64,000 nt of DNA from Rotaria sordida. Taxonomy: Eukaryota. Both the position numbers and the translations under genes were made by a program. The notes under the pieces were generated by a model. That model ran no database searches. It was not told where the DNA came from and saw only the letters and a list, made by a program, of their open reading frames with translations. The DNA is taken from assembly GCA_905250005.1 (NCBI GenBank), contig CAJNOH010000403.1:34708-98707 (forward strand), in the 5' to 3' direction. Below, in pieces: positions 2,477 through 28,700 of this stretch (position 1 is its first letter; each line of letters begins with the position of its first letter).

Positions 2477-3646
2477 TCATTTCATATAATAATCACATTT
2501 AAGTATTGGACAATCAACTTGTACGTTCGTTGGTAAATAATCATAATAGAGTGTATAAGTAGGAAATGATTGATTATGTGTACCATCAACATATGCACCT
2601 ATATAGGAATAATTTTCAAGTGAATGCATCGGATCTAGAGGAGTATTACGTGAACGAGTATTTTCACGAAATATCCTGACAGATCGTGTAGCTAAATCTG
2701 TTTTATCAATAATCATTTTAGATAGAGCATAGATGCTTATATAATCTGGTACAGTAATATGTATATGACCTGGATATCCATGGTAGGAATCGAATGTGAT
2801 AAAACGAAGATGAATAGTAACATATCTATATATATATATATACGAGACAATATATTTTATTTTAAATCATATTGATATTACCTAATATGATTTAATTGTA
2901 AAGATTCATTAAATTTTTGTTGAAATTTCTTTGGAGATTTTTCAAGAACAATTTCTTTTGGTTTTGGTACAGATAATTTTGTTATATGTTGTAAAATACC
3001 ATTACCAAGTTTTTCATCTAATATTGTTCGATAATCAATTAAACCTTCAATTTCGAATAATTTTATAAGAACAAAAAAATCTTCTATAGACATTTCAGGC
3101 AATCGATCTTTGATGACTAAGAATAAAAAAAAACAAATAAAATTTCATTTCAATATAAATAATCACATAACGAAATGATTTTTTTAATTACTAAGTCGAA
3201 ATTGTTCATATGGTAAACGACCGGAATGTAGTTTATCTAATGAATGACAAACAGCAAGTAATCTTGTTTTGTGACCTAATAATAATGAATTAATACGTTC
3301 ACATACAGTATTTAATTGTTCAGGAGAAGCAAATATAGCTTTTGTTACTTTTGTTAAATGTTCCTATATTAGAAAATATGAATAATAATAATAATATTTT
3401 TCTTATTATGAAGATCTTTACAAGTTCTTTTTGACGAAGAGTTTTGACTTTCTTTTTCTTCTTCTTTTTCTTCTTATTTGCCTCTTCATTTTCTTCGAGT
3501 TGAAGAGATTGAATTAAGGATATTGTTGTTGGTGGTAATTGTTTAGTATTGATCGTTTCATCCGGTGATGATTCTACATCAGAATATTCAGTAGCTTCTA
3601 TCTGATGTTGTTGTTGTTGTTGTTGTTCATTATCGATATTCTCCAT
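2477..3646 (-). CDS. Conserved hypothetical protein, 4 exons, with an N-terminal polyQ/polyK low-complexity region
   Basis: Exons approx 3411-3646 (ATG at 3646; MENIDNEQQQQQQ...KKKKKKKKKKVKTLRQKEL then donor gtaaag), 3188-3364 (acceptor ttctaatatag; EHLTKVTKAIFASPEQLNTVCERINSLLLGHKTRLLAVCHSLDKLHSGRLPYEQFRL; donor gtaatt), 2882-3107 (VIKDRLPEMSIEDFF...LNHIR; donor gtaata), 2477-2828 (YVTIHLRFITFDSYHGYPGHIHITVPDY...CDYYMK, stop). Frames stay open across canonical GT/AG junctions. No family recognised. Confidence 0.55.
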
Positions 3647-4399
3647 TTTACAATCAAGAAGAATAGAAAAAAAAACGATTGATGATGCTATTTAGTGGCA
3701 TCTTACTATGGACATAAGAATGCATCATTTGCATGTCATATTGATTTCAACAGCATAGAGAGCAATGTAATTTGAGACTTTTTTTATAATGAGTTTCAAA
3801 TAAATGAGTAGAACGAATATTCAACAACGAAAAGTTCATTCATTGAATAGATTATGTATTTTTTTTCAAGGTTTACAATATTTATTGGCTAACACAATTA
3901 ATAGTAATGACTGATTATTGATTGAATAAAGTTTATTAATGCATTGGTCCATATGATTTGTTATAACGATTTTTTTAATTCTAAAACATGTTTTTATGAC
4001 ATCCAACTAATAGAAATTATTGAGTTGTTGAAGATTGCGCGATGATATAAAAATTTCCATTGATTAGATTGGCATGATCAGTCATTGGTCACGCACAAAT
4101 GAGAAGGGGTTAGAACTTAAAAGTGAAGAAAGCTTATGAGGAAACTTTTCCAGGTGTCAAATCGCTTTTCGATCGAGACGATGTTCATTAGATGAGTACT
4201 AGTAAGTAATAGAAAAGTCTAGAATGGTTTGGTTTTCTGGGTTTTTGTTCTTGCAATACCGAAATTTTACTGGATTTTCCAACAAAAACCTATGGTCTCT
4301 CTCAGCTTATCTGGAAAATCGACTTTCGACTTACAAATTTGCATGAACAAAGTTCGTAATAAGATTAGTTGCTTGTGCAACTTTTAACTTTTTTAGTAT

Positions 4400-5650
4400 T
4401 TCTTTTCTGGAAACGTAAGGTGTCGGCAATGCAAATTTCAAGTAAAAACTTTTTCGCTTTTTTTAACATTATGTGATAGAAAGTGAATTGCTGATCATGA
4501 AAAATTTGAAGCATGTCGTTTTTTTTCCGACAAACACATGCTTTTCAATATGTGGAAAATTTTCCTTTCCATCCTTCTTTCCAGCTTTTAAACATTCATT
4601 ATTCAGATTCAGCATCAAAATTTGAATATAGATAAGTTGTTACATCGATTCCAATCTCGACAATATTTTGATGATGACGTTTCGAATTGTGACGAGTGCA
4701 ATATTATAGGTCGATTTTATAAATCTATCTAGTTTTTTGTGTAAGTGATCAAACCAAATATTTTATCTCATTTAATTTCTTGTATCATCAGTCATAAAAG
4801 TATGAATCGCTTTTTTTTTCTTTTTCTTTCTTTGTTGAGAAAAACCATTTTTTCTGAATTTTGGAGAAAAAAACTAGAATTCTGCCTGTATTTTTCCATT
4901 TTCTTGATCAAAACTAAAATCTCCTATAATATGATTGAAATATTCGGAGTCAACGTAAAAAACTGGTTTCACTAATGTATGTTTCGAAAATTTTCATTAC
5001 TTTTCATTTTTTGATGAAAATTTCAGGGACATTTTCATCTGAAAACTGGCAAAAAGCTGAAGTCAACGAAAAAGGTTAAATTATATATAAGTTAATTTAG
5101 TTTTTTTTCTCTGATTCCGAATATGATAACATTATTGTATGAAAGCTTAGTTTTTATGAAAAAAATGAAGAAACACAGACAGAATTCTATCTATTTAGCC
5201 CAAAATGCAGAAAAAGTGATTTTTCTCAACAAGAAAGGAAAAAGAAAAAAAAGTGACTCATATTCTTATGACTGATGATACAAGGAATTAAATGAGATAA
5301 AATATTTGGTTTGATCACTTACACAAAAAACTAAACAGATTTATAAAATCGACCTATATATATTGCATCTGTCGCGATTCGAAGCGTCATCATCAAAAGA
5401 TTGTCGAGATTAGAGCCAATGTAACAGCTTATCTGTATTCAGATTTTGGTGATGAATCTAAAAAATGTATGTTTGAAAGCTGGAAAGAAGGATGGAAAGG
5501 AAAATTTTCCACATATTGAAAAGCATGTGTTTGTCGAAAAAAACGACATACTTCAAGTTTTTCGTGATCAACAGTTCACTCTCTATCAAATAATGTTTAA
5601 AAAAAGTGAAAAAAAAATTTTACTTGAAATTTGCATTGCCAGCACCTTAT
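4400..5650. repeat. Foldback F1: about 1.25 kb near-perfect long inverted repeat (hairpin), symmetry centre about 5030
   Basis: The reverse complement of 4400-4990 aligns to 5070-5650 at roughly 85-90% identity when read by eye. Example: 4741 gtaagtgatcaaaccaaatattttatctcatttaatttcttgtatcatcagtcataa versus 5262 ttatgactgatgatacaaggaattaaatgagataaaatatttggtttgatcacttac. Arms diverge beyond about 4395 and 5660. ORFs 4745..4975, 5446..5769 and 5606..5824 lie inside the arms. Confidence 0.85.
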
Positions 5651-8393
5651 TTCAATGCATTTGGTATTCAGCCTGCTCAGCAACGAAAAATCTTCTCAAT
5701 CCATCAGTTGATCATAGAAAAATCGAAGGGAAAAATGTCGCAGTGGAAATTGATCGAAAAGTACTTTAGAAAACTCCGACTTGCAAGAAATTCTGTATTG
5801 TATAGCAAAATACTAACATTCTAACAGAGATCATACAGAAGTCACGAAAAAAGAAAAACTTCATGTGCTCAAAGTCATCGTACACTAGAAACACCACTGT
5901 TTCGATATTTTTCGGTTTCGACATTTTTCTGTCTCAATATTTTTCCTTTCGATCTTTCTACTCCTAAAAAACAAGAAGCCCGTTTCATGTAGCTGCATGC
6001 TTTGCTCGAAATCATCCGTAATTTTTCACATCCTATCTCGATCGGTGATACTTATCAAGCAGTCATTAACGAATTTCGTATTTGCTATCGCAGCAATAAG
6101 CACGGACTGAGACGTATCGATGAATTCTCATGCACTTACATTCCGATCAAATCGATCTACTAGTTTATAAAAGATGTCTTTCTTTATTCACTGTTAAATA
6201 GAGTCCTGAGAATATAAAACATAATCGCTATTGTCAAGTTTCAATACATCATACAAGATGTTTATTGACAACTAGCTGAACTGTTCTCAAGGCTCAGCAA
6301 TCGGCTCACATACATATTAAGTCATAATAGAATATAATTCTTAAAACATTATTGGAAAATGTATCTTTATTTGTTTGTCCAACATATATACAGATTTAAA
6401 GCTTTTTTAATTGAAAAACATGCTATCGAAATGATAAGCACATGAACAACTATTTCAATTTTACTAAAAATCTGTGGAATGTAAAATTCTATTGGCAAAA
6501 GTTTAGTATGAAAGTCTGTTTTTATAAGCTAAGGAACAGCTAGTAAATTAGTAGACTATAGTTCACTAAAAAAATTGTGACGATACTCCTACTATAGCAT
6601 ACATTCACTCTGAAACTCCATTTATTTGAAAGTAGAGTGTAATTTCTGATGATTTGATAATTTCTTAGTGTATTTGAGTGGAGTATGCATGAAGAGTAGC
6701 GCGACACCTACATCTACACCCTTCTGATGCATCGAAACAGAAAAATAAATGGTCGACAGCATTACAAATCGAATAAGTACATTGTAAATCGATATAATGA
6801 TTGGCTCCTAATAGTATCTAATCTTCTGAATGGTTTGTCCTTAGTTGTGGCAAAAAAATTGTGATGGTTCAATAGGAGCATTACTTAACGTTGATAAAAT
6901 AAGATATAAAAATCTTTTTACTTGTCTTTTACTATTTCTTTTTTAATAGTAAACATTTGGTTCAAAGTTATGTGCTTGGTTTTTTAATTTACGCGGAAAA
7001 ATAATATTCAAAAATTTCCACCTCAAGTTTTTGATATTTTTACTTTCGACCAAAGTAGGGGTATTCAGAAGATCAGTTGAGAGTGAAGACTGGTTCTGCA
7101 GAACTATGGCTTTCTTTTAGGACAGTTAAAATGACCTATATACAACAATAGATAAATCCGCTGGTTTAAATAAATCCAAAACAAAAAAAAAAACAAATCT
7201 CAATAGCTCCTCAGTTATTGGAAAACTTTTGAAACGTATTTGATTCACTAATAAACTTTCGTGTCGATATATATAACATAACAAGTTTGGGAGATACATT
7301 TATGGCTGCAGGTAAACAACAATACAAAAAGAAAAAGTTTACCTTTCCTAAATTTATTGATTTCGTAAGTCATATTTTTCAAAGACAGTAATCAAGTAAA
7401 ACAATCCTTGTTTACCAATCGATAGCTCATTAACTTCTCCATAATTAGCATAAAGTTAATTGCCGATTAAATGTTTTCATTTTTGTTAATAATGCTATTT
7501 CTGCTGATGCTCACGCCAGTAAAAATGAGTTCATTTTGAAACATACAGGATTTTATGACTACATATATACAATTGCTCATAAATATCAAAGGAAAATTCA
7601 GCAAATATTATAAGTTTTACCTTAATCACTATTATACAAATTGTGCATAATATGTGAGAACCTTTGAGTATCAACATAAGCTTCTCTAATTATATATAAC
7701 TCTGTCATTTAAAATGTGTAAAACTTATCGTCAAAAAAAAAACAATTTAAGTACATTTCCATTCATTAAATGTTTATTATTTGCAAATACAAACAAAAGA
7801 TTCCACTATAGAACAATATCTTAATTATACTTACATATTGTTTTCATTTAAAGAGAATAAAAATTTATACTCGAACTGTACTAATTGTTTCCAAGGGCAA
7901 TTTTCATATGAATAGAACGTATAATTTTCTTTCCGATAAATTATTTAATTGAATTTATTATACACCAACAATGTTATTATCTTTCATTTTAATATGAATA
8001 CTTCAAAATAACATCACGTTCTCTTCTAATTTTCGAGTCTCTGCTAATATTTCTAATCATCACATGCCTACAACATTCTATATATGTATTGATATGTTGA
8101 AAACAATATTAAAAAATTCTGATACATGCTTTGTTTTTTCTTTTTACTTCGTTGCTTATCGTGCTTACTATCGAAAATCAAAAGCCACGAACATACATAT
8201 TAAAAAAATGACCAAGAAAAAAAAGAGAGTATAGAAAAAAAAAAGAAGACATCTGTTGCTACTTTATTTTATTAGTAGTTATATAAAAATGGCTATATGA
8301 GAAAGAAATGAAATAAGACAAAAAAGAAACGTAACAGATGACGATTTTGTTTTAGTTCTTTTAATCGGGTGTGATTGTAATGATTTAAAATAT

Positions 8394-9003
8394 CTACTCG
8401 CCACGTTTGTACCAACGACGAGCTGTGACATCACCAGCTTTCATCTCCTAAAAACAGATAAGAAATTAAAATAGATTTTATTTTCGAAGAAATAAAGAAA
8501 TAAACATACAATTTGTTGTTGTCCTTGTCCATCAACATAACGTACAATTGTCGATTCTTTACCATTCTTATCACGCATTGTATGAACCCATTTATCATTT
8601 TCAAATTTGATAACGGACTATTGAAATAAATAAAAAAAAAAGATAATGTTTACATTTTCTAGATAAGACATGCGACTAACCTTAACATTTTCACCATCAA
8701 GACGAGTTTCATCGAATTCAACACCAGGTGTAAATTCATATTGTGCCGTTTTAAGCGTTGATTCACTTTTCAATGACCATTTACCATCACTTTCTTTAAT
8801 AATTAATTTTGGTTTAATCAATTTAGCTGATTGACGAAGAGCAAAACCGACACCCTTTTACAAAATAAATCAACATTTCATATATAAATATTCAAAAGTA
8901 AGAAAATCTTCTTACAATTTCTTTCATATAATCATCGAAATGTTCACCATCGACGTATTCCCATGTACCTTTAAGTTTTTCAATACCGCTAGTAGCTGTC
9001 ATA
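8394..9003 (-). CDS. Cytosolic fatty-acid-binding protein (FABP, Sm14-like), 4 exons
   Basis: Exons approx 8916-9003 (ATG at 9003; MTATSGIEKLKGTWEYVDGEHFDDYMKEI; donor gtaag), 8681-8853 (GVGFALRQSAKLIKPKLIIKESDGKWSLKSESTLKTAQYEFTPGVEFDETRLDGENVK), 8501-8617 (SVIKFENDKWVHTMRDKNGKESTIVRYVDGQGQQQ), 8394-8437 (EMKAGDVTARRWYKRGE, stop). It has the classical 4-exon FABP layout. The C-terminus matches the Schistosoma Sm14 pattern ...GDVTAIRNYKR. Confidence 0.8.
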
Positions 9004-9829
9004 TTAGTTTAATCGGTATTCTAAAAAATCACATTTGAATGTAAATATATCACTATAAACATAAAGTTCACTATGAACTTACTGAATCAACAAAAAAAAA
9101 GTTATGCGTGCAAATATGAAAAGACGAGGTAATGAGTGAATGAAAGAATATAGACACGTCTTGTTTTATATATATAGTGATATCTTCTATGAGAGAATAA
9201 GAGAGAGGGAGAGAGAGAAAGAAAATGAAATACCAATCGTATTGTATAGAGGCATTTTTTTTTTCTTTGTTAAAATAGAAGGAGAAAATGTACACATGTT
9301 GTGGTGGTGATATATGGTTGGATGAGCCTCGAAAGCTTTACATACATAATATCATTTATCACTAAATAGAATGAAAACAATGTACGATTTCTTATCGTCG
9401 GAGTCTCGCGGTTATGCGCCGAGGAATCTGTATCATTCATTGAATGAAAGAGAAACATAGACATCCGAATTTTTTTTCTTCGTAAACGAAATACATCAAA
9501 GCGTGAAGCACATCTGCTTCATAATAGTAATAACTATTATCATATCATAATTTATTTCCATTCATATATCGACTTACTTTTTAGCCTTTGATCAAGGTAA
9601 ATCAATCTTATAACGAATGATAACTGCATAGTTCTATTCTCTTTAATAAGGTTATTAATGAATATAAGAGAAAAAGAAATATGATATTCGTTGTTAATTT
9701 GAAAATATTTTTATTAATTATTTAATTTTGAAAAAAAAACAAACAAGTCTCTTGTTTTATTTATTTCATGATTAAAAAACATAATATAAAAATTTCAAGT
9801 TAATTATTAATATGAAAAAGTGCATATTG

Positions 9830-10480: not shown

Positions 10481-10699
10481 GCTAAAAATAAAAATTGAAA
10501 AGATTTTCTTTTTTAAAAGAAGAATCATGAGACTATCGAGTATACGAGGCATTCAATACAAAAAAAAATGTTTTCTTTTTAAGCATTCAATACGTCGATA
10601 TCTGAAACCACCAACTCCATATATTAACTTTCTATAGTCTTTCTTTGGAAAGTTAGTCAATATCTACTTTTTACCACTATCATATTCTTATTAAAAAAA

Positions 10700-11290
10700 T
10701 GCCTTGAACAAAATTACCTATCTCAATATAATATTATATTAACCAAGTTAAGTTTGATAAGGTTGGCATCAATGAAAAATGGCTCTTTCGATAGGTATAA
10801 AACGTTCATTTGATAACAATCCATCTCCTATCGTAATCAGCAACCAAAACTGAATTGAGTTATTCGACAATTTAATTCAATTCAATTCAACAGCAATCTC
10901 TTCATTAACTCTCAAACACAAGCAACAAAATTCACTTCAATATACGGTATATACTTTCTATGTCTTGCACTTACACAAACTGTATCGATCTCTTGGTATG
11001 AGAGGTCTACTACTATTCATTTCAAAGTATCATGTATGTGAACTCGGTTTCGCCCTAAATGTATCATTTATTTTTGAATATTTATTTACAGTTTTGTAGA
11101 GAATAAAAAGTTGTATCAAATATATAATATTCAGCTTGAAACTTTTTGATTCAAAATCCCCACAAGAGATAGATTGTTATAAAGTAGACATTTTAGACTC
11201 TCATCTATGGAAACATTTTGCATTCATACTAACCTTATAAAACTTGGCTCAGTTGATATTATATTATATTGAAATAGGTCATTTCGTTCA
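10700..11290. repeat. Foldback F8: about 590 bp inverted repeat, centre about 11000
   Basis: 10715 acctatctcaatataatattatattaaccaagttaagtttgataaggttggcatcaatgaaaaatgg matches the reverse complement of 11200-11275 (ggttagtatgaatgcaaaatg...ccttataaaacttggctcagttgatattatattatattgaaataggt). Confidence 0.7.
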
Positions 11291-11589
11291 GTTTTTAATT
11301 CTCTATCTTTTAGTATAATTTATAAAAAATTCGAATGATTTGTTGAAACGAGTACGATATTTATAGGAAATATTTTTTTCATAAGGACATGATAGTGATA
11401 AAAAGTCGATATTGATTAATTTTTCAAAGAAAATCTATTGGAAACTAAAATATTGGAGTTGATGTTTTCAGACATCGATGAACTGAATGCACAAAAAAAA
11501 ATTTTTTTTTTATTGAGTGCCTCGTATAACTCGGTTATCTCATGATTCCTTTCTTTATAATTTTACAAACCATATATAATGAATCATTT

Positions 11590-12218
11590 GGTTGTCGATC
11601 ACCAACCCATACGGCATGAAAATCTTGGTTACTTTCTACATATGAAAGATGTCGTTCAATATCATTTTTGTCACATGGATCTATATAATAAATAGAAACT
11701 AACTAAGAAAATTTTCATTTTAATTAAGCAATATTCTTACAATTTTGTGAATTAATTCGAAATTTAGTTTTAGCACCTGATCGTATTTCTTCAGCTTCAA
11801 CTTGTAACAAACCATTACAATCAATATCCATACAAATTGATATTTCTAATGTTTGTGAAGCAAAATTTGGTATTAAATCAGTAAGTATAAATTCACCAAG
11901 AAATATCTAAAAAAAAAAGGCAACAAAATGAATTAATATAATAATTTTTGATTGAACATATTTTAAACTAACATTATATTTTGTAAGTTTATGTTCACCA
12001 CTGAAAATGCGAATTGTAGCTGTTGTTTGATAAGCATAAGCATTTGTAAAACAAGAATCAAATTGTGTTCGAAATGGTATTGTTGTATTACGACGAATAA
12101 TTATACACATATGACCATTAATATCTTCAATACCCAAACTGAGTGGTGTAACATCAAGTAATAATAATGCTGTATCTTTTACATCATTTTTCGAAGATGA
12201 CTTGCATTTCTTTTCCAA
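11590..12218 (-). pseudogene. HSP70-family substrate-binding and lid fragment with no ATPase domain; truncated gene or pseudogene
   Basis: Three exons: 11923-12218 (MEKKCKSSSKNDVKDTALLLLDVTPLSLGIEDINGHMCIIIRRNTTIPFRTQ...IRIFSGEHKLTKYN), about 11745-11905 (IFLGEFILTDLIPNFASQTLEISICMDIDCNGLLQVEAEEIRSGAKTKFRINSQN), about 11590-11700 (DPCDKNDIERHLSYVESNQDFHAVWVGDRQPNDSL...). It aligns with the Hsp70 motifs LLLDVAPLSLGIETAGGVMT..RNTTIPTK...GER..T.DN..LG.F.L.GI.PAPRG.P.IEV.F.ID.NGIL.V.A but is divergent. Upstream DNA (12230-12900) is foldback F2 and the PARP4 stop is at 13074, so there is no room for a nucleotide-binding domain. Confidence 0.6.
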
Positions 12219-12229
12219 CCTAGAATACA

Positions 12230-12900
12230 GTCAAAGGAAGTAGCACTTATACCCCTCGCAGATTTTTTTTTCGCACAAATATTTTTTGGTTGCAGATAGT
12301 ATGAAGATGTAAAATCATCCAATCAGACCTTGGACATTTTTAGTCTTAGCAAAGACAATCAATATTTTAGAGGACGGTCATTTATATAGGAAAGTACTAG
12401 AAAATAGGGAATATTTAGAAGTTTCTGTAGTCGAAAGTTGATTTTTATGTAAAATGAGTATGGTATTCAGAATCAGCATGAAAAATTATACTAGACAGTC
12501 TATTTTTCATTGTAAAATATTTTTCATGAAAATTTGACCCATAGGGGACCACGGGGAAAAATCTCATGGATAAAAGGTTGAGGGGGAGTAGGGGTCAGAT
12601 TTTCATGGAAAATATTTTACAATAAAAAATAGACACTAGTTTAATTTTTCATGCTGATTCTGAATATCATACTCATTTTACATAAAAACCAACTTTCAAC
12701 TACCGAAACCTCTAAATACTCACTATTTTCTAGTACTTTCCTATATAAATGACCGTTCTCTAAAATATTGTTTTTTTTGCGAAGACTAAAAATGTCCAAG
12801 GTCTGGTTAGATGATTTTACATCTTCACACTACCCACAACCAAAAGATATTGAAATGAAAAGAAACCTTGCGGGAGGAGGGGTATAGCCTATGGAAAAAG
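12230..12900. repeat. Foldback F2: about 670 bp near-perfect palindrome, centre about 12562
   Basis: 12241 tacccctcgcag... versus 12875 ...gcgggaggaggggtatagc. The interior is mirror-symmetric, e.g. 12400 gggaatatttagaagtttctgtagtcgaaagttgatttttatgtaaaatgagtatg versus 12640 catactcattttacataaaaaccaactttcaactaccgaaacctctaaatactc. Centre is gaccacggggaaaaatctcatggataaaaggttgagggggagtaggggtc. Confidence 0.9.
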
Positions 12901-13073
12901 CGCCATTTTCTTTATATATTATTCACTACAATGAATGACTATTATTTCAAAGTCATACTTGTTTTTGGACAGCAAGTCTATCTGGGTAGGTGAATTAGAA
13001 TACGATTCTTTGAAAGTCGAAGTCACCGTTGGTTCCGTTTGTTCATCAGATCGTGTCTACAATAAGCAATAAT

Positions 13074-14310
13074 TTATGCAAATGATCTAAGCGTAATTCT
13101 ATCTATACATACATCAGTATACCGCATGCATGACACAGCAGATTTATGAACAACAGGTTTAGCTTCTGAAGCTGACTTGAATTGGTTTACAAATTCGGAA
13201 AATTTATCCAATTCTACTTTTCGACGCATTTGAGGAGCGCAGATACGACTAGTAGTGTGTAGTTTACTTGATTGTTCAACAGCTCTGTCACGATAAATAG
13301 ATTCCTTTTGCTGAACTGTTGAATTTGGTTTATCTGATTCTGTTTGGATTTTGTCAACATCTGATAACATTGCCGTTAAATGTAGTAAGATAGAACGAGA
13401 TGAAGATGCAGCAGTTGATTCGATGCTAGATGGTTTAGGTGTTTCACTAACATAACCGAATGATAACGGTGCTGATAGAACAGATGAAGTCGAAGGAATG
13501 TTAAATATCGATTGATTGCTAATCATTGAAGGTGCAGCATTACAAACAGTATTTTCGCCAGATCCACCGAATGAAAACAATGATCGTGACTCCGAGGATG
13601 TGGTGCTCAACGGTAATGCTTCTGTTGTTGGATGAGGAGGTGGCGACCAAGGACACATTGCCGATTGTTGTACGATAAAGTTTGGAGTCATAAAAGAAGT
13701 ATTGGTATTATAGTTACTACTACTGCTTCCAAACAATGCTGAACTAGGTGGAGGAACGGGAGGAGGCAGTGGTGGTGGTAGTCGTGAAGGTGCACCAGAA
13801 AACATTGCTGAACCGCCATATCCTCCGAGCATGGAAGGAGCATTGATGTTGTTATTGGTGTTGTAGCTAACGTTACTTCCAAATGTAAATCCATATGATG
13901 CAGGAGAAAAAACTGATGGTTGAAACCCAAAAGGAGAAGATATTGTTGAAGCCCCAAATCCTGTGGAGCCGAAAGAAGCGTTGTTGCTGACGTTGCCGCT
14001 AACGGTAGTAGTTCCGAATGGATTGGAAGCAAATGGTACACCAAAAGAAGGAAGTGGTAATGTTGCAGGTGTGGTAATGGTAGCATCATTAGAAGCTTGA
14101 TACCCTACTGGTGCATTAAATTCTGAGAACACAGGATAGGTGTTACTAGTGTTGATGGTACTGCCTGGGAACGAAAACAGTGATGTTGTACTAAAAGTCG
14201 TACTTGAGTCACTTATTTGAGCCATTTGTGGTGCGACCATTTTCTCATTTGATAAGCAACTCGTATGTGTGAAAACAGATGAATCTAATGATGTCATTTG
14301 TTGTTGTTGT

Positions 14311-14368
<58 letters not shown>

Positions 14369-14441
14369 CTTGTAGTCCATGATCAGAAGAAGTGTATTGT
14401 TGTATTGAACTTTTCTCCCGTGACTTGCTAGACATTTCTGA
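13074..14441 (-). CDS. Putative terminal exon of the PARP4-like gene: polyQ of about 24 residues plus an S/T/N/G-rich FG/GF-repeat region and a proline-rich stretch
   Basis: 465-aa ORF 13074..14471. The in-frame acceptor ttttcag sits at about 14441. Sequence includes QQQQQ(x24), SFGVPFASNPFGTT..FGSTGFGAS..PFGFQPSVFSPASYGFTFGSN and PPPLPPPVPPP. Joining it to the upstream exons is inferred from donor/acceptor pairs at 14738/14441 and 15243/15180. It could instead be a separate gene. Confidence 0.5.
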
Positions 14442-17400
14442 AAAGAAAAGATTGATCATAATTCCTAACAAATCGTTGACATTTTAAGGATGTTCTCAAA
14501 GCATCTTCAGAAGATGATCAATATCGAAAGTTATCGATAAATATTTTATCTGAACATAGGTCTCGATGTAGAAGGAGCTAGAATTGGGTAATTTCATTCT
14601 TCTACTATCTTCATGTTTACGAAAATGTTGAACTGTAGTCAGAAAGTTGTCCGCCAAATTCTCAATTCCTTCCATATGTAAGAACTATTGAGACTCTATT
14701 TGGATACAAAAAAAACTTTATTGAAAATTTTTACCTGCTCTAGGTGAAATTTCACCACCAAGAACATTCGCATGAATAGCACTCGACTTTTCGTGAATTT
14801 GTGCCTTTTTCAGAGCGAATTTTGATAAAACTGGAGATGCTATCTGCTTTTTTGAATATTCCTTCACTTCTTGAATTGATTTTTTTGCTTTTAGAGTTTC
14901 CACTTTGTCATATGCTATGGGTTCCATCTGTTGGAAAAGAGAAGGATCAGCATCAATTTCATAAGAGTTCGCTTCTTCTTCTAGTGCTTCATCAAATGAG
15001 CATATATGACCTTCTGTTTTTTCAGAAGTAACATTCATTATTAGGTTCTCGAATTTTGTGTGCACCTCCATTGGAACTTCATAATCATCAAATAAACCAA
15101 AACTCATGCCTGCCTGACTTTCTTCACATTCTTCGTTTTGCACTGATTTAATTTCACTACATTCTAGTAGATCGTAATTCACTTAGAAAACATAGAGAAC
15201 ATGAAAATGATTAAAATAATGTTTTGAACAAAGTAAATTTACCTGCCTGGGACGACATCAAACGTAAGGAATCATCTTTTACTTCATCTAAACCGAAGTC
15301 AAATGAAAGCTTATTGTTACCCTTCATCTAGAATTAATCCAAACAATGTTTCATTTATGCTATAGAATTCACTTACAAATAGATCACCACCATCTTCGTC
15401 ACTGTAATATATTCCATCATCATCCTCAACGAGTGAATAGTTTTCCTCTTCTTCTTCTTCTTCTTCTTCTTCTTCTTCTTCCCTTTCTTCAACAGTTGCA
15501 TTTCGATGTTCTAAATCTTTTCTAATAAAAATATAATCGTACAAAACATAAATATCTCTCCATTTTCAACTTACAACATTTCAGTTCCAAGACGTATATC
15601 AATTTCATCTAGTCGTTTTTCTAATATTTTTATTTCATCAGTTGTCGCATTTTTGATTTCATTCATTAAATCTATTAATATACATTCAATATTAACTAAG
15701 AATTTTAAGAAAAATTTCATATTTACCTTTCTGCATATTTTCTTCTAATTCTCGAGCTTTTTCTTTTTGTTTAAATGTTGTTCGATATGTATTAATAATT
15801 GTTAACATTAAATCATATTTTGCATCACCACCAAAACGATATGATATATTCTGACAAAGATTTTCATATTCATTTAATAAATCAATTTTATTTGCTATTG
15901 AAGCACTATCAAATAAACGTTTTCCATTAATTAATTTATCTTTAATTATATCAATTTGTGATCGATCACCATCCCAACCAATATATGGAAGTAAATCAAT
16001 ATTATTTTCAAGCATAACATCAAGTAATCGAACACCTGTTTCAAGTGCTTGTCCATCACGTTCTTCAATAGCTACAAAACTTGTAAATGAACTCACAACA
16101 GAATATTTCATACTAAGTTCAATTAAATTTTGTTTATATTGTTTTTTAATAAGTTCATTTTCACATTCATCATTATGTAATAAACCGTTTTCATAATCTT
16201 GAATAATAGCACGAGCTGTTAAACAATGTAATATATACGTCCTCTTGTTTCAGTTATTTTATTACTAAATACAGTTGTTATATATTCTTGATTATTTATT
16301 GTTGCTGTTAATGTTGCTTTATGACAATTTTGTATAAAACGATATACAGTTAAACGCATACCGTTAAACAATGAACGAATTATTTTTGGTGCTTGACTAG
16401 TAAATTTTTCTTGTTGATCATCAATTGTTCCATGCCAATCAATGGATATATTTGTTACACATGGTTGATGAATATGTTCAAGTATTTGAAGTACTTTTGT
16501 TTTCCATCTTGAACGATAATTTGAATCAAATACAGTTATTAAACCACCACCATTTATTCCATTAGATAATTGTCTTAAATTATGTTTATTAGATATTTCA
16601 CCAATTGAACATGTAAATAAACGATCATAACGCATTGATGATCGACTTTCTAATAATATTAAAATAGATTGAAGATCATTGATATGTCCATCAGAGAGAA
16701 GAATAAATTGTCGACCGAGTTTAGATGAAGATGGTAAAAGAGAATATTGACGAAGTACAGAAAATAGATCAGTATTACCACGATGATCAAGTGAATGCTA
16801 TAATAGATATAGATTTAAATATATAAAAAAAACAAAAACCAATGGACATGATTAAAATAAAACGATACCAACCAAAATAAAATGCTTAGCTTTATCAATA
16901 TTTTCTTTTGTATTTTGTGATGAAATAGGAAAACATTCATCATTATCTAAAATAAATAAATTAATGAGAAAAAAATTAATAAAAATAAAAATATTGTTCT
17001 TGATTTACCTGATCCAAATGTAACAATATTAAAAAATATATTTTTATCATCAGTTTTCATATTTGTCAAAAATAAATGTGCTAATTGTTTTGCTTGTTGT
17101 ACATGTTTTCCATCCATAGAATTTGATACATCAATAATAAAAATAATTTCTACGTATTCATTTGAATTATTGATCATTTCAAATTTTGGATAAAATGTTA
17201 ACATACATGCTTGAGAATTTTCATCAATCAATTGATTATTAGTATTTGTATCGGATAAAACAAATGTTTCATTTAACATGCGTGGTAAATTAACACTTTT
17301 TAATGTTATGGAAAGAATAAAATCTTTTTCAAGTAAAATATTATCAACAAGTTCAATCATAGCAAGACAATCAGTTATTTTTCGACGAAGTCGATGTGTT

Positions 17401-20400
17401 GGTGAAAATAATTTTGTTATTTCATATGGCATACGTATTGATGCTTTAAGACTAAATTCAATTGATTTCATTGAAGAATTATCTTGTTCAAGATTAATTG
17501 ATGGAAGTATTGTTTGATCTTTGATTTCTAAAGCTTGTTTTGATTGCCATGAAGCTACTTTAGCTGGTAAACGAAATATAATATCATTATTTTCAATAGA
17601 TAATTCAACAACATATGTAATTTTTATAATCACTTCACAATTAGCTGGTAAATTACCAACAGATACACTAAATACTTCAGGTTGTTCTTGATGCATTAAA
17701 TATGCACCATGACCTTTTTCAATAGCTTCACGATATTCACGTTTAGCTTGTTCTTTTTCTTTAACAACACCTTTAATTATTTTATTATTAATATGAGCTT
17801 CAAAACCACAAACAGAAGAATTTTCATCAAGAGGAAATATATATTTTGCTTCAATTGGTATTGAACTTGAATTATGATAAACTTGATAAAGAACAATCTA
17901 AAATAATTTATAAAAAATGCTTTTTTTTCTTCGGAAAAGAAAATTATTTAATTTACTTCAGCAGTAACATCAATAAGTTGAGCACGAATATGAAAAGCTT
18001 TAAGTGGAACAACTTCACCTGACGATGGACAAATTAAACCATAATCTTGTTCTGCTACTTGAATTACTTCATCTTCGATTGTTGAAGGAATATCCACTGA
18101 AACAAAATATATACATGTATAATTACTGCTTTATCAGCTGGAATACTAACGAAGAAACGTTTCTAAGTGTCAAATCGTTTATGAATCGAGGCTATGTACA
18201 TCACGTAGGTTCTAATGAGCTAAGAATACTCTGCAAACAGTTCGAGCTTATAGCTCATTACTGTCAAGATACTGTATTTTTCTAGCAGAAGGCCGTAGTC
18301 TTCATTAGGAATAGCAGAAAAACTAAGTTTGGAATTTCACCTTGAAACTTTACATAGAGACAGGCCTTAATGGAAATAGGTTATTGTAAAAGTTTCAGAT
18401 CTTTTGATTACTTCTATTCTAAGATACAACTATGATGAAAGCATGTTTTTCACGCCATTCATATACAATAACAAATTCCAATGTTCTTATTTCAAAATAG
18501 GCGTAATCGAAAAATCTGAAATTTTCACAATAAGTTATTCTCATTAAGATCTCTGTTTATGCAAAGTTTCAAGTTGAAATTCGGAATTCAGTTTTCCTAA
18601 TGTTTCTAAGGAATATCATGGCATTCTACTAAAAAATACGGTAAAAATATAGTATCTTGACAGTAATAACCTATTAGCTTGAACTCTTGTCATGGTAATC
18701 ATAGTTCATTAGAACCTACATGATGCACCTAGTCCCGACTCAAAAATAATATAACATTTAGAAATGTTATCTCATTAGTTTAAATCGTTTTTCTAATAAT
18801 GTCTTATTCTTTTAAAATTTTTGCAGTTTGATTCCTTATCAATATGTATTTGATTATTAAGTTCGTTCCTTAATGTACGGAAAATAAAACCTATGGAATA
18901 AATCTTGAACAGAAAATATCCAACAAGCAAATAATTATATGATTATCATTGAGCATATTTTTATTTTTCTTTCAGAGATTAGTGGAATTCTTTCCATGAT
19001 TCTGAAGTATAACAATATCTTCGTTTTTCTATATTGCTAGAGATTGATCAAACATAAATATACAAATGGTTAATGAATTACAGAGATATCGACTAGAAAT
19101 TGCTCTTGTAACATTGTACTTAACCATGACCCATCTATAAATTTCAGTGTATAGTTTTTAGGGGAGAATATGTGAGCGAATTCCATCCCACTGATCTAAA
19201 GAAAGGCTATTTACACGATGATATGCCCTGAGCCTACTCTATAGGTCTTTGAAATAGACTTTCTTCAGATCAGTATGTTGAAATTCTCTGAAACTTTTTT
19301 TCCCCAAGCACTATTCACTTAGATCTATCTGAAGACGTAAGCAAACGTTTGAGATCTTCAATTGAGCCGAATCATTCATGAATCTCGCCTCATTATTCAT
19401 TCCAACTGTTTAGAGAGGAATTGAATGATTACCGAGATTTATTTTCGTTGGACTTACTTAAACTATGGAATTTATCTGAACTTTTCCTATTGATAGTATA
19501 TAATACATTTTCACTGTATCAAAAGAAAGCCATAGTTCTGAAGAGTCAACGTTCCGTTCACCCTCAGCTGATCCCCAGCTTTATGTGCCATTCTCGTCCT
19601 CGCTATCGGCTAGGCATCTGCCTTCAATCTAGTTTATTTCGTTTGATGATAACATAAATAACGAAATTTATTAAAAAAAATCCCCAAAATTTCCTACAAA
19701 AATAAATCTCGAAAGCTGTTGCTACGAGGATGACAAACGTCCAACCAATGATCAATATATTACAATTAAAATCTATTGAAGAGAACTAATGCGAAATCAA
19801 GACGAAATCTGAATGCTGATGTGTATTATGAATTATCTATGATTTGTTTGGAAAAAAACTGATTACCTTCATCTGACAATAATTTTGACTGATTTGTTAA
19901 ATAATCACGAATAATAGGTAATAATTTTAGTGATTGATCCATATTATCATATGGTATCCATGAAAGTTCAACAAGATAGAGTAATCGTTGTTGATCAAGA
20001 TTATAAATAACATATTCATCATCCTAAATAAACATCATAATAAAAATCTGATTGAAAATAATTATTTATTTCTTACGCTAAACTTTGAATTATTTTCATC
20101 ATTTCTTTTTACTCCATGTGTACTATGAAAATGTTCAGGTGGTTGAATTAAATTTGGTGCATATGAATAGAATTTTGCCGAATCTCCTAATGCTACTTGA
20201 GATATACATAATAATCGTCGATCAGGACGTGTTATACTTGGTTTTGTATATTTTAATGATGTTGAAACTGAATCAGAAAAATAAAGTCCATATCCTAAAC
20301 ATCCAATATCAGTACGTGTAACTCCTAAATCATTAACAACCATTTTTGGCATAAGAAGACCGCTAAAAAGAAAACACAAAGAATTTGAATATAAAACTAA

Positions 20401-22203
20401 GAAAACAATGTTTTTTTCCGTTTTTTGTTTAATTTACCGTGATAAAATACCAAGAAAATTATTATATTTTGATCCATGAAAAAGTTGTTTTTGATTAAAA
20501 AATGTTGAACGAAAATTCAATGCATCTGTTTGTTTAGCTACACTATATATTTGATGAATAATTACTTGTTCATTTCTACAAAAAATATAAAAATTTTGAT
20601 AATTACAAACAAGACAAAAAAAAAAAAAAAATACGAACGAATTCGTTGATGAAGAAATCATTTTACTAATTGTAGCGTATTCATGTGTATCACTCTTTAC
20701 AGTTTCTATATGACATTTTAATGCCCGATATTTTGCTTCAATTGATGCTTTTATATTCCAATTTGTTAATTCATTTATAGTAACCATATCGCGTAGCATC
20801 TAAACTTTGAAAAACGAAAAAAACTAGAAAAAATTTAAAATAAAATTTCTACCTGACATAAATCTAATTTATCAATTAATGCACGACGATTATTAATAAG
20901 ATCGATAACAAATGATTGTTGATGAGGAATAAGCGAATAGAAACGAATTTCTGCTTCTAATGGCGATTTACTATCAGATTTGATTTCAAGTAAAGCAGCT
21001 TCTGCTTCAATAATCTAACAATAATAAGAAACAAATAATAAAATTTTTTTTTTAATGTTTTTCTCCTACTGTTTTAAGAGCAATTGTTTCTGGTTGTATA
21101 GAAAGTATTTTATTTAAATCACCAATTGATTCAATCCAAAGTGATTCAACTAATTGACAAACATTATCATCAAGCATTTGTGTATCAATTCGATGAAGAA
21201 ATAATGACTAAAAATTAATTGAATTTTTTTCAAGAGGGAAAAAAACAAGCATTTTTATATTTATCTTACACGTAATAATAATTTCGAACCTAATTTATCC
21301 GGTAATAAATCACGAATTCGTGTTATTCGTGGCATTGTTACAATACGATTATAATATAAAGCATATAATTGATGTAATTCATTAATATCATGACTAAATG
21401 CATATTGAATTAAAGATATTTTACCTTTTAAATTTGTTATTGTTTGTTTTTCATAACGAAATCTTAATCGATAATCATTATTTGTTTGATTATTATATTC
21501 TTCAGGAATAATTTGAACTTCAAGAACAAAATAAACATCAGAATTTTCATTTGTTTCCTATTTTACGAGAAAATAAATCAACAATAAATTTATTTTTCAA
21601 CAAATATTTACTTTAAAAATTGCCCATTTACTAATTTCAGCATGTGTTAATTCATCAAATCGTGGTAGTTTAACATCATCAGAATTCCAAATTTTAATTT
21701 TTGACAAATCTAATTTAACAGGTTTTATTATACTACCGGAAGGATTTCCTCCATCTATGAGAAAACAAAAGATAGAATAATTTTTTATATTTCAATGAAA
21801 TCAATTTATTAACCCGTAATAGATATAGTACCACTTTTTGAAAAATTTTCTTTATCTTCTGCTGACGTTACAATAAATCGTTTAATATCAATAGAATTAT
21901 TTTCATTGGGTAATTTACGATATTCATAAATATATTCAACATTTACTAATGGTATACCGAACTGTTTAGCTCGACGAGTTTTATATGTATCAATATCATT
22001 AGAAACCAAAACATAATCAGTCTAGAGAAAATTATATTTAATTATATTTAAATATGAAATTAATTAAAACATACACTGGCTGTTAAAATATATGAAATAT
22101 GAGCATTTTGTTTATGTAAATAATTAATAAGTTCTTGTTTAGTTTTGAAACGAATATCTCGACCAAGCTCAAGTACAAATGTCTTACCATTTAATGGTGA
22201 CAT
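13074..22203 (-). CDS. PARP4: PARP4 / vault poly(ADP-ribose) polymerase-like gene, about 20 exons: BRCT, PARP regulatory and catalytic, VIT, VWA, then a long low-complexity C-terminal region
   Basis: ATG at 22203 (MSPLNGKTFVLELGRDIRFKTKQELINYLHKQNAHISYILTAS, BRCT-like). The PARP catalytic signature spans exons 20437-20565 and 20087-20367 (...LFHGSKYNNFLGILSRG|LLMPKMVVNDLGVTRTDIGCLGYGLYFSDSVSTSLKYTKPS...) and exon 19868-20037 (DDEYVIYNLDQQRLLYLVEL). VIT runs from exon 17955-18107 into the large exon about 17000-17885 (...KEKEQAKREYREAIEKGHGAYLMHQEQPEVF...). VWA with MIDAS is IIFIIDVSNSMDG in the same exon. Further exons are at 16240-16800, 15692-16218, 15567-15668, 15317-15545, 15243-15316 and 14738-15180. 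The terminal exon is 13074-14441. Most GT/AG junctions check out. This BRCT-PARP-VIT-VWA order is specific to PARP4. Confidence 0.75.
14281..14352. repeat. (CAG/CTG)n trinucleotide repeat encoding polyQ
   Basis: ttgttgttgttgttgctgttgctgttgctg... seen on the plus strand; it codes for Q(24) on the minus strand. Confidence 0.9.
15436..15482. repeat. (GAA/TTC)n trinucleotide repeat encoding polyE
   Basis: cttcttcttcttcttcttcttcttctt gives EEEEEEEEEEEEEE in the minus-strand exon 15317-15545. Confidence 0.9.
18135..18775. repeat. Foldback F3: about 640 bp inverted repeat, centre about 18450, inside the PARP4 intron 18108-19867
   Basis: 18160-18290 cgtttctaagtgtcaaatcgtttatgaatcgaggctatgtacatcacgtaggttctaatgagctaagaatactctgcaaacagttcgagcttatagctcattactgtcaagatactgtattttt is the reverse complement of 18640-18760. 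The inner parts also pair (18330 ggaatttcaccttgaaactttacat with 18560 atgcaaagtttcaagttgaaattcgg). Confidence 0.85.
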
Positions 22204-25014: not shown

Positions 25015-26662
25015 ATTTAAATTAAGATACTGCCCATTTTCTTTAAGCCAATCGACAGCACAAGCTTTCACATGCGCCGTTATTCCTTGACATTTGAGTG
25101 ATTTTCGACATTGAACATTTGGCTAAAGAAAATAATGTATTGTATTCAAAACATTTTAATCAATTTTTAGTTTATTATTAAATAAGTTCATGTAGAATTA
25201 TATAAAATAGAACGAGTTTGTAAATTAATTCTATCATATAACGATTCTTTTAAGCACATAGTATTATATATGATGTGACCTAAACTAACTAGAATTCGGA
25301 TAAACTTAATCTATACAATTCAATTTATGCTGAGTTCAATTTTTTATGAGATTATCATAGAACATATACTATTGCATGAATATATAATGTTGATTTATTG
25401 TTTTTTGAATTTAATTTTAAATGAATAGATCATAGTAAATATTTCGAAGAAGAGAAAGGCTGATTTTTGAAAAAAGACAATTGTTGATGATGATTATCTA
25501 TTTGTTCGTTTCTCATCAAAATTCAAATATTTGTTTTTACTAATGAAATAAATCAAAGCAATTTTCAGATAAGTTTTTATTGAAAAAGTCTTCTATCCTT
25601 TAAGAACAAAGAGAATAAAGTTTTGCTTTTTTTTTTAAAAATTACTCAGCAAAGATTTCAATTGAATATCCTTTCGATCGAAATTTTTTTTTCTGTAAAT
25701 CTTCAATGAGTAATATTTTAGAAATTAAAACAAATCTTTAATCTAAATTCTTTTTTCTGTTTTATACTTACACATTCGTATTCTCCTTCAGCATTTTTCA
25801 TTAATAAAGTCACAATTTTATTTTTACCACTTCGTCGTTTTTTAACTACATTAACTGCTAGCTGCTGTGATGATCGATCTTGATGATGTGAATTTGTTTG
25901 ATGATGATTACCATGTCCACTACTTGTATGATGTGGTTGATGATGTGATGGAAGTTTATTTGGATTAGTTGTACCACTACCATTTTGTTGCGCAGGTAAA
26001 TTATGATGTGCAATATGATGATTTGTTGCACCAGCAGCAAGTGCAGCAGCAGCAGCTGCAGCTGTTGATGCTGCTGCAGCTTGTTGTTGTGTTGTTTGAC
26101 TAATATAACCACATTGATGTTGTATAAGTGCTGCTTGTGACATAGAAATTTTTCCAACTGTAGCCCATCGTTCAAGTAATTCACATAGTGTACGTTGTTT
26201 TTCATCTAGTACTTGTGCTGTCGTTGATGTTGGTTGTTGTTGAGATGTTGTTAATAATGCACGAATATTTGCTTTGACTATATTCGTTTCTATTTATATC
26301 ATTAAAAAAACAAAAAAATTAAACTAAGAAAAGAAAAGAAAAAACTGAACGTTCTATTTACCATTAATTAATTGTTCAATTTCATATCGTAATAAATTTT
26401 CATGTTCATGTATATGATCAATACAAAGTAATAAATGACAATGTGGACCTGAGATTAAAGCAGAAAAAAAAAACATATTCAAGTTAAATGAATAGAAAAT
26501 CTTACAAGAAACATAAAGATTTCTTGAACATGTTAATAAACCATTTTCATTTCTATGTTGACATTTAACTGATATTGTTTGGCATATACCAGAAAAATAA
26601 AGTGACGATGCTTGATCATCAGCTGCTTGTTGTGTTGCAGCCATATGTGTACCGGCTGCCAT
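25015..26662 (-). CDS. Cys-pair-rich and His/Gln/Ala-rich nuclear-type protein, multi-exon; possibly FAM76-like
   Basis: ATG at 26662: MAAGTHMAATQQAADDQASSLYFSGICQTISVKCQHRNENGLLTCSRNLYVS | CPHCHLLLCIDHIHEHENLLRYEIEQLING (exon about 26354-26456) | ETNIVKANIRALLTTSQQQPTSTTAQVLDEKQRTLCELLERWATVGKISMSQAALIQHQ...AAAASTAAAAAAALAAG..HHNLPAQQ..HHQPHHTSSGHGNHHQTNSHHQDR...KRRSGKNKIVTLLMKNAEGEYEC (exon about 25745-26290) | PNVQCRKSLKCQGITAHVKACAVDWLKENGQYLNLN, stop (about 25015-25125). The N-terminal CxxC pairs and His-rich tract are reminiscent of FAM76; this is a low-confidence family call. Confidence 0.5.
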
Positions 26663-27974
26663 TTTATTCCAGGAAACAAAAGAATATATATTGAAGTACC
26701 TTTTTTTTTTAAATCAACTTTGAATTTGAATCAATTAAAATGCACAAAAAAAATAAAATAAAATTAATAATAAATGTTGATCTTGTTTTTTTTTTTTAGT
26801 TTTGGTATTATTCAATTGGAAATATGAACAAGAAAATAAAATGGCAACGTTTTATTAGATTTGACAAGAGAATCTAAAGAGAATAAACAATAATCGTAAT
26901 TGACGATCTTTTGACAAAAGAAATTCCAGCTGATCCAACTTCATTATCCATATTTTACATTGGAAATGTTGAGGATCAACAGCCATCATGATTTCTATTG
27001 ACATTCATTATGCGTAGAGGTCTTTGTGCTAATTTTTTTTGATACGATATTAGCGACATCATTTATCTTAACAATAATTGAAATGAAATTATTTATTTAT
27101 TTATAATGAAAAATAGTATTATTTGAAAAAGATTAAATTATTGGTTTATTTTTTGAAAGAAGAAAAAATTATTTGATGGAAGATGAATCATCACTATGAG
27201 AGTGGTGGTTTTTTTTGTTTAAAGAATTTCGATTGGTTTTTTTGAATTTAAAGTCAATTTTTTTCAAGAATGTTAGAATTTTTGTTTCTGATGAAAGGAA
27301 AATAATGATGATTTTTATTACATCGATATTTAACAGATTTTCATTGTAAAAATCAATGTCATGTTCGATTAGAAATAATAACGAATTACTTGACATTGTT
27401 ATTGGAATGGAAGAAAACACTTATTATAATTGAATTGATGATGTTTATTAAAATATGTTTTGAATTTTCGGAAGATTGTACCGAATATGAACTTTTTATT
27501 AATATGTAAATTGATGAAGAACTTTGAATATACTTGAATCTTGTCTATGTTGATACTTAATGTCTTCTCGACTTATTTTTAAAACAATATACACAACAAA
27601 AAGACAGTATAGAATGAAGAAGAAATAGACTGATTTATATTAATCGAACTCATTTTTATTCTAGTTAACGAAAGTTTATGAAAAAAAAATAGATATGCAT
27701 AGTTTTAATATTGAAAGTTGTAAGTGAGATATTATGATATATGGATGTGTGGTGGTATGGAGTGAGTTGACAGTGATGAACGTCGACCTTTCATTAGCAA
27801 AAGAGAATGTACAATTTGATGCGAATTCATAGTGGAAATTTGATTGATCAACATTTAGGACACTTTCAAGTTTGTACTTGAGTAAGACCTTTTGAACTTC
27901 ATTAACAGATTTTTAGCTAATGCTCATTTCAAAAAAGAAAGGCAGGTGAGTATTTTTTTTTTCTTGAATAAATT

Positions 27975-28700
27975 TTGAAGGGAATGACATAGAGAGCCGC
28001 GATTTTCACAGTTGGAAAGAGGCGATGAAGACGCATCGAACTATATACAAAAAAATTTTTCTGATTACTTTGCTAAGAGTCTTATGTAAACTACCAGCGA
28101 CAAAATTAATGCGACATCTATTTTTCAAGTTAGGAATAGCCAGAAGATTTTGAACGTATTACCATCATTTTTTGAGGATATCTAAAGTTTCTTTTTTACC
28201 AAAATAATCAGCTTTACTAGCTTTACAAAGTTCTATAAATGAAATAATTTTTTGATGAACTTTTGTCTTTTATGGTTTACTATTATTGAAAATATCCATG
28301 AAAAATAAGTGTAGCTTTATTTTTGTCGTTGGTAGAAAGCTCCTAGAAAACCAACATGCCTTGTACGATCGCGATATTGACTTATTTATTTTCGGAGGTG
28401 AACTAGAACTGCCAATCTAAGAACTAAAAAACTGCATAAAGATTTTATTCCTAGCTGCTACCAATAAGATATCCTAGCTATTGAAGTGCAAGTTATCACG
28501 ACATTCTTCCAAGAAAATAATCGAAAGATATACGTTTTTCTTATATTTTGATGAAAAATCCCTTGTTTTAACACATGAGAAAAAAGCAATTCTTTGAGAA
28601 AGTCTGACTAAAACTCTTAGGAAAATAGTTAGAAAAATCTTTTCATATATGGTTCGATGCATCTTCATCTCCTCTTTCCAATGGTGAAAACCGCAGCTCT
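27975..28700. repeat. Foldback F6: about 720 bp inverted repeat, centre about 28340, intergenic
   Basis: 27981 gggaatgacatagagagccgcgattttcacagttggaaagaggcgatgaagacgcatcgaactatatac versus the reverse complement of 28630-28700 (gaaaatgacatagagagctgcggttttcaccattggaaagaggagatgaagatgcatcgaaccatatatg). Confidence 0.85.

Follow-up and report, generated by a model that had tools for sequence, protein, structure and literature searches.

A long palindrome between two genes of the bdelloid rotifer Rotaria sordida: neutral decay and a probable origin from a foldback-type DNA element

Results

The window analyzed here, a stretch of 64,000 nucleotides of Rotaria sordida DNA taken as a whole, is eukaryotic in character, being AT-rich (26-36% GC) and containing split genes. 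The exons of a minus-strand gene at 2477-3646 are a 100% match to a Rotaria sordida protein, and the VIT/VWA exon of a PARP4-like gene matches bdelloid rotifer proteins. This PARP4-like gene (13074-21000, minus strand) has PARP, VIT, and VWA domains as well as a long poly-Q exon, and an HSP70-like fragment (11907-12218) lies directly downstream of it; the R. sordida annotation L064 fuses the two into one 2,409-aa model.

The feature under study, F1, is a palindromic (foldback) element of 1,234 bp at 4416-5649, delimited as a whole by self-alignment, BLAST, and folding and carrying no strand assignment. It lies ~770 bp upstream of the gene at 2477-3646 and ~2.7 kb downstream of a fatty-acid-binding-protein (FABP) gene. 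The initial annotation had placed it in intergenic DNA and regarded its open reading frames (ORFs) as mirrored artifacts devoid of coding potential, and both statements are borne out: the R. sordida record L060 has zero annotated genes between the FABP gene and the gene next to F1, and the ORFs of F1 are at most 107 aa long and mirror one another. Their concatenated translations had no relatives among 5.8 billion proteins at E ≤ 10, and a Pfam search with the ORFs returned no significant match, all hits falling under the curated cut-offs. Similarly, Rfam gave no match over 3600-8400, and the F1 arms showed no similarity to genes or proteins in the window, in the protein database, or among significant Pfam matches.

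In a gapped self-alignment, F1 resolves into a left arm at 4416-5013 (598 nt), a loop at 5014-5049 (36 nt), and a right arm at 5050-5649 (600 nt), with a symmetry axis near 5032, so that F1 consists almost entirely of its inverted repeats. The arms align with 511 matches, 79 mismatches, and 15 indel events, corresponding to 86.6% identity at aligned bases or 84% when gap columns are counted. BLAST of F1 against the window recovered only F1 itself and its own reverse complement (E = 0), and the sequence folded as RNA into a single nearly continuous stem with a minimum free energy of -668.8 kcal/mol. The coordinates, arm length, centre, and identity that had been estimated from the letters were thus reproduced by repeat search, self-alignment, and BLAST. 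The accompanying statement that mismatches are spread evenly was not, since arm divergence falls into two tiers. The outer left arm (4416-4860, plus strand) and its partner, the outer right arm (5204-5649, minus strand), are long terminal inverted repeats of ~445 nt each that are ~91% identical (p-distance 0.089; Kimura two-parameter [K2P] distance 0.096), with an identity by quarter of 0.89/0.87/0.91. In contrast, the inner core (4861-5203, no strand), which contains the 36-nt unpaired loop, is weakly palindromic, its ~150 nt per arm being ~73% identical at aligned bases (p-distance 0.267; K2P 0.334). The arms contain no tandem subrepeats, with TRF detecting just one 24-nt T-rich run inside F1, and the palindrome does not continue into the flanks as a complete older palindrome within the window.

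To place F1 in time, we compared the orthologous loci of Rotaria sp. Silwood-2 (L004) and Silwood-1 (L005). Both are collinear with the window over 1-4411/4419 and again over 7840/7866-12235, at 81-83% nucleotide identity, and neither contains a homolog of either F1 arm; F1 is thus specific to the R. sordida lineage. In both species, the alignment breaks at the left end of F1, inside the central spacer of an older palindrome that we refer to as FB-old; in Silwood-2, this point coincides with a (TA)9 run. FB-old is complete in Silwood-2 (L004 8878-9509) and Silwood-1 (L005 8969-9505), where a short spacer is followed by an inverted copy of the ortholog of 4143-4411 and then by 2.5 kb of further DNA. 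Because the sister species carry this inverted copy, the window segment at 4143-4411 (plus strand) is recognizable as the surviving left arm of FB-old; its inverted partner was not found to the right of F1 in the window. Where the sister species have the right arm of FB-old and 2.5 kb of their own DNA, R. sordida has F1 and segment Y (5650-7865, no strand), 2.2 kb of non-coding DNA that also has no homolog at L004 or L005 and shows no similarity, in either orientation, to the replaced sister-species segment X. In a distant rotifer (L006, a JGI metagenome contig), the corresponding intergenic region measures ~290 bp, compared with 4.3 kb in the window (3842-8138). The intergenic region of R. 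sordida has grown by insertions.

Further R. sordida assemblies (L060-L064) were reached via the cluster members of the neighbouring-gene protein. F1 is complete in L060, interrupted by an N gap within the element in L064, and cut off by a contig end in L063. The assemblies fall into two R. sordida haplotype classes that are ~3.6% apart in F1, and since F1 is present in both classes, it is older than their divergence. L062 was considered as a possible F1-less allele and rejected, as it has a scaffold gap with unrelated repeat sequence and N at this position.

Long palindromes break short-read assemblies, and L061 and L063 end inside them. Together with the N gap in L064 and a stray F1 fragment in L060, this could suggest that F1 is itself an assembly or amplification artifact, i.e., a chimeric inverted join. 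The chance of this is close to negligible, because such a join would yield identical arms, not arms differing by 79 mismatches and 15 indels; moreover, the window is free of N, and F1 was assembled independently in L060 and L064, with allele-specific differences, and partially in L063. The stray fragment belongs to ~3 kb of extra sequence in L060 (reverse complement 17431-20445) at window position 9463, which has inverted ends of ~190 nt and a centre made of an F1 fragment with its flank. It was rejected as a paralogous second copy, since the fragment lies between N gaps and is 98.5% identical to the window haplotype, which points to mis-scaffolding.

A different kind of insertion separates the haplotype classes directly beside F1. 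In L060, L061, and L062, a 423-bp foldback MITE (L060 reverse complement 11906-12328) lies 40 bp to the left of F1, with ends AGGGGTGGGAAGTTACC, internal GGTAACGG-type motifs, and a 10-bp target duplication, AGTTGCTTGT; the window carries the corresponding empty target site, AGTTGCTTGT, at 4367-4376 (plus strand). As it is found in one haplotype class and absent from the window, this MITE is a recent, polymorphic insertion. F1, the 423-bp MITE, and FB-old thereby form a nest of palindromic insertions within 1.5 kb. L062 additionally contains a second element beginning with GTAGGGGTGGGATATTTAC and five ~200-bp tandem repeats.

The initial annotation had offered selection for pairing as one explanation of the structure, in keeping with a functional long hairpin RNA (hpRNA) locus in which F1 would be transcribed and diced to endo-siRNAs that regulate a target. 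A long inverted repeat that can fold as one RNA, with the very stable stem predicted here, agrees with such a role; in bdelloids, the Argonaute and RdRP families are expanded and about four Dicer genes are present (PMC7943196), and long inverted repeats can in general yield hpRNAs (PMC8728187). The comparison of alleles argues in the other direction. Between the haplotype classes, identity is 96.4% in F1, 97.9% in Y, 98.4% upstream of the neighbouring gene, and 99.5% in the FABP gene; the flanks thus differ by 0.4-2.1% (identity 97.9-99.6%) against 3.6% in F1, which evolves faster than its surroundings. Only one segment of the region, the FB-old arm (95.3%), is less conserved than F1.

Pairing itself was examined by aligning all four arms, two from each allele; 38 columns of this alignment differ between the alleles. 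In 32 of these, the pair is intact in one haplotype only (18 in the window allele and 14 in the other allele); five are paired in neither allele, and the remaining column is a compensatory-like double change, of which ~0.2 would be expected by chance. The two alleles retain 498 and 495 pairs in total, and substitutions occurred at approximately equal rates at paired (roughly 3.3%) and unpaired (3.0%) positions, so that pairs are broken at the neutral rate. Within one allele, G:U-type mismatches (29) are balanced by A:C-type mismatches (24), with a transition-to-transversion count of 53:26, and neither strand of F1 shows wobble-biased change. At the orthologous loci of both sister species the hairpin is missing, and there is therefore no conserved hpRNA locus to compare. 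F1 decays neutrally, with no constraint on either its sequence or its pairing. Given this, the absence from the sister species, and arms that have neither gene or protein homology nor an Rfam match, a functional hpRNA locus is a very improbable reading of F1, whereas the other explanation originally proposed for the arm mismatches, an old duplication, receives support.

The K2P distances allow F1 to be placed relative to other events at the locus. The haplotypes of R. sordida are separated by 0.037, and noncoding DNA of R. sordida and the Silwood species by 0.19-0.24 (about 0.22). The distance between the outer arms of F1 (0.096) lies between these values, which fits an origin in the interval between the species split and the haplotype split, in agreement with the presence of F1 in both haplotypes and its absence from the sister species. 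For comparison, the arms of FB-old in Silwood-2 are 0.251 apart. FB-old is thus about as old as the species split, and the loss of its right arm is a derived state in R. sordida. The core arms of F1 are more diverged than the species, yet F1 is absent from the sister loci, implying that the element probably had a history before its arrival. A local mutation hotspot fails to explain the divergence of the core arms, because the core exceeds the outer arms in allele divergence by a factor of only ~1.5. F1 was therefore probably moved or copied into this site rather than made here, as far as can be judged from these distances, and the simplest reading of the pre-arrival element is an asymmetric core bounded by near-identical long terminal repeats. 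In situ inverted duplication agrees with neither observation: neither arm is present in L004 or L005, and the arms diverge by 0.096 in their outer parts against 0.334 in the core.

The ends of F1 resemble those of a mobile element. The left terminus (4416-4426, plus strand) reads TA|AGGTGTCGG and the right terminus (5639-5649, minus-strand reading) reads TA|AGGTGCTGG, i.e., a candidate TA target duplication followed by a terminal motif. TA is present on both sides, a match that is just 2 nt long and self-palindromic, and the right flank has no orthologous counterpart in the sister species. On the left, the boundary is ambiguous within 4412-4420, since the opening 4-5 nt of F1 (TAAG) are shared with the flank in Silwood-1. 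By chance, the motif TAAGGTGNNGG would be expected 0.09 times in the window; it is present three times, in each case at the end of a palindrome. Two of these ends belong to F1, and the third to another TA-flanked, near-loopless palindrome of 634 bp (45829-46462, no strand), which has the terminal motif TA|AGGTGATGG in common with F1. The opposite end of that palindrome is TAATGTGGTAG, and apart from the terminal motif, its sequence is unrelated to F1. Across ~330 kb of rotifer DNA, TAAGGTGNNGG was found only in the F1 alleles and at the end of 45829-46462. Neither an autonomous partner, such as a mariner with the same ends, nor a transposase gene was seen. A further candidate for a shared terminus, the string 'AGGTGTC' in the older palindrome, was discarded, given that the palindrome in question reaches at least 20 nt further out.

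F1 is not unique in kind. Of 16 significant self-similarities in the 64 kb, 15 are local inverted repeats, and the window holds 13-14 palindromes in total, F1 among them. Besides 45829-46462, these lie at 10516-11556, 12248-12886, 18057-18862, 25612-25744, 27917-28770, 35523-36739, 43876-44480, 49424-50712, 50241-50565, 52995-53562, and 55295-55920. The 12-13 palindromes other than F1 measure 130-1,290 bp, mostly with loops of 2-45 nt and with arm identities of 62-86% (none >90%). Their density, ~1 per 5 kb, is above that of the Silwood and other rotifer loci compared. No sequence kinship was detected among the 13-14 window palindromes, and the only hint of a dispersed family is a match of part of the terminal repeat of the palindrome 27917-28770 (at 28646-28740) to L002 8937-9029, a position on the contig of another rotifer that is 74% identical over 98 nt and apparently non-orthologous.

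A block of 675 bp at 12236-12910, which contains the palindrome 12248-12886 (K2P between its arms, 0.123) and overshoots it by 12 and 24 nt, is cleanly absent from both sister species, where the empty site reads CAGTCAAA|TTTATG; no target duplication was found at this block. At the R. sordida ohnologous locus (L056), the equivalent intergenic region has its own, unrelated palindrome of 603 bp (7554-8156), which is fixed in four assemblies (L056-L059) at 99.1-99.9% identity.

The search for further copies of F1 came back empty in the window, in ~260 kb of other rotifer loci, and, by way of ORF translations, in the protein database, a sample that excludes only copy numbers of at least several thousand. 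Among JGI metagenome contigs, six right-arm peptide patterns picked out 457 candidate stretches, of which none was confirmed, and the 18-mer GGCAATGCAAATTTCAAG gave 48 loci, all of them chance matches of 18-28 nt.

Discussion

F1 is probably what remains, after decay, of a non-coding DNA element of the foldback type (long-inverted-repeat, MITE-like). The flanking TA at either end, the terminal motif that recurs at another palindrome, the polymorphic 423-bp MITE next to F1, and the cleanly absent palindrome 12248-12886 all point toward transposition. Against this stand the lack of a second copy in the sample, the mutual unrelatedness of the palindromes, and the fact that Y is also lineage-specific, which deprives F1 of a clean empty site. 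The absence of shared sequence among the 13-14 palindromes is also unusual for abundant MITE families.

A probable scenario is as follows. Within the R. sordida lineage, F1 would have entered this intergenic region by inserting into the AT-rich spacer at the centre of FB-old. We infer that it arrived by cut-and-paste transposition, in which a trans-acting transposase would have recognized the TA-flanked 5'-AGGTGNNGG termini (a Tc1/mariner-like target). The right arm of FB-old and the adjoining DNA would have been lost or replaced later, and F1, having become fixed in both haplotype classes, would then have gathered substitutions and small indels in the absence of constraint. Any read-through RNA across F1 would be expected to fold into an imperfect duplex of roughly 570 bp that could be diced into siRNAs; such siRNAs, if any, would be a by-product rather than a selected function. 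Bdelloids possess RNAi machinery capable of processing long dsRNA of this kind (PMC7943196).

The position of the breakpoint, exactly in the central spacer of FB-old, allows for another, rather unlikely origin that deserves serious consideration. The centre of FB-old may have acted as a fragile site at which a break was repaired in the R. sordida lineage, with the loss of the right arm and 2.5 kb and the capture or copying of ~3.45 kb (F1 and Y) from elsewhere; F1 would then be either (i) a palindrome that pre-existed in the donor or (ii) a product of strand switching or snap-back synthesis during repair. That F1 and Y are both novel and lie on the same side fits such an event, as do the lack of a verifiable target-site duplication at F1, the uniqueness in sequence of every palindrome in the window, and the insertion of 12236-12910 without target duplication. 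Desiccation-induced breaks and microhomology-mediated end joining have also been reported in bdelloids (PMC2861651). However, a palindrome made in one step should begin with uniformly identical arms, whereas the core of F1 has 3.5 times the divergence of the outer arms and predates the species split, and neither arm is ancestral at the locus. Furthermore, a terminal motif common to a second TA-flanked palindrome is unexpected from random repair, and no donor was found in the window or at the ohnologous locus L056. For these reasons, we prefer the reading of F1 as a relic of a transposed foldback-type element.

A broader and rather improbable idea concerns the palindromes as a group. With 13-14 of them in 64 kb, all unique, and F1 nested in the centre of another, the palindromes of R. 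sordida might, instead of being ordinary transposon families, be unique hairpin DNAs that are repeatedly made or captured at breaks, with a preference for the centres of older palindromes, and they could jointly feed long dsRNA to the unusually expanded RdRP and Argonaute families of bdelloids.

Repeats, for the most part simple or unclassified ones, account for 19-45% of bdelloid genomes (PMC7943196). F1 would be one more undescribed foldback- or MITE-like relic in this unclassified fraction and matters little on its own. It does serve as a worked example of how comparison of haplotypes and sister species dates a long palindrome and reveals neutral decay; given that decay, expression data are needed before long hairpins in bdelloid genomes are taken for hpRNA genes. 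Of greater interest than F1 itself is its context: palindromic insertions in R. sordida intergenic DNA are dense, nested, still polymorphic, and assembly-breaking, and all of these properties bear on estimates of transposon content and structural variation in an asexual lineage.

Among known systems, described hpRNAs have arms homologous to their target genes and give rise to Dicer-2-dependent siRNAs. The loci compared with F1 are those of Drosophila (Okamura 2008; Wen 2015; both cited in PMC12553114). Unlike described hpRNAs, F1 has neither gene homology nor pairing constraint.

Another parallel is found in MITEs derived from Tc1/mariner elements (Stowaway-like), for example human MADE1, in which two Hsmar1 inverted repeats form a near-loopless palindrome. 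Like these, F1 is non-coding, consists of nearly nothing but two inverted arms, has TA on both sides, and could form a hairpin RNA if transcribed; its terminus also contains AGGT(G), as do many mariner ends. Unlike mariners, in which two bases usually stand between TA and AGGT, F1 has AGGTG directly after TA, and at 1,234 bp, it far exceeds the size of typical MITEs, which are usually under about 800 bp.

F1 also resembles foldback elements (Drosophila FB, C. elegans Tc4, and PAL-type palindromic repeats) in being made up almost entirely of long inverted repeats around a short central region with no coding capacity, although, unlike Drosophila FB, its arms are free of tandem subrepeats and it is not flanked by a 9-bp target duplication. 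Such elements have a precedent in this group, as a foldback-like DNA transposable element insertion was reportedly the only large indel in the bdelloid fosmid contigs of Arkhipova and Meselson (2005; cited in PMC2861651). A further comparison comes from R. sordida itself: the 423-bp MITE is, like F1, palindromic and non-coding and belongs to the same genome and the same intergenic nest, but it has different termini (AGGGGTGGGAAGTTACC) and a clear 10-bp target duplication. In this duplication it resembles Mutator-type elements. The two also differ in age: the 423-bp MITE is a young insertion, still polymorphic, and F1 an old one that has reached fixation in both haplotype classes.
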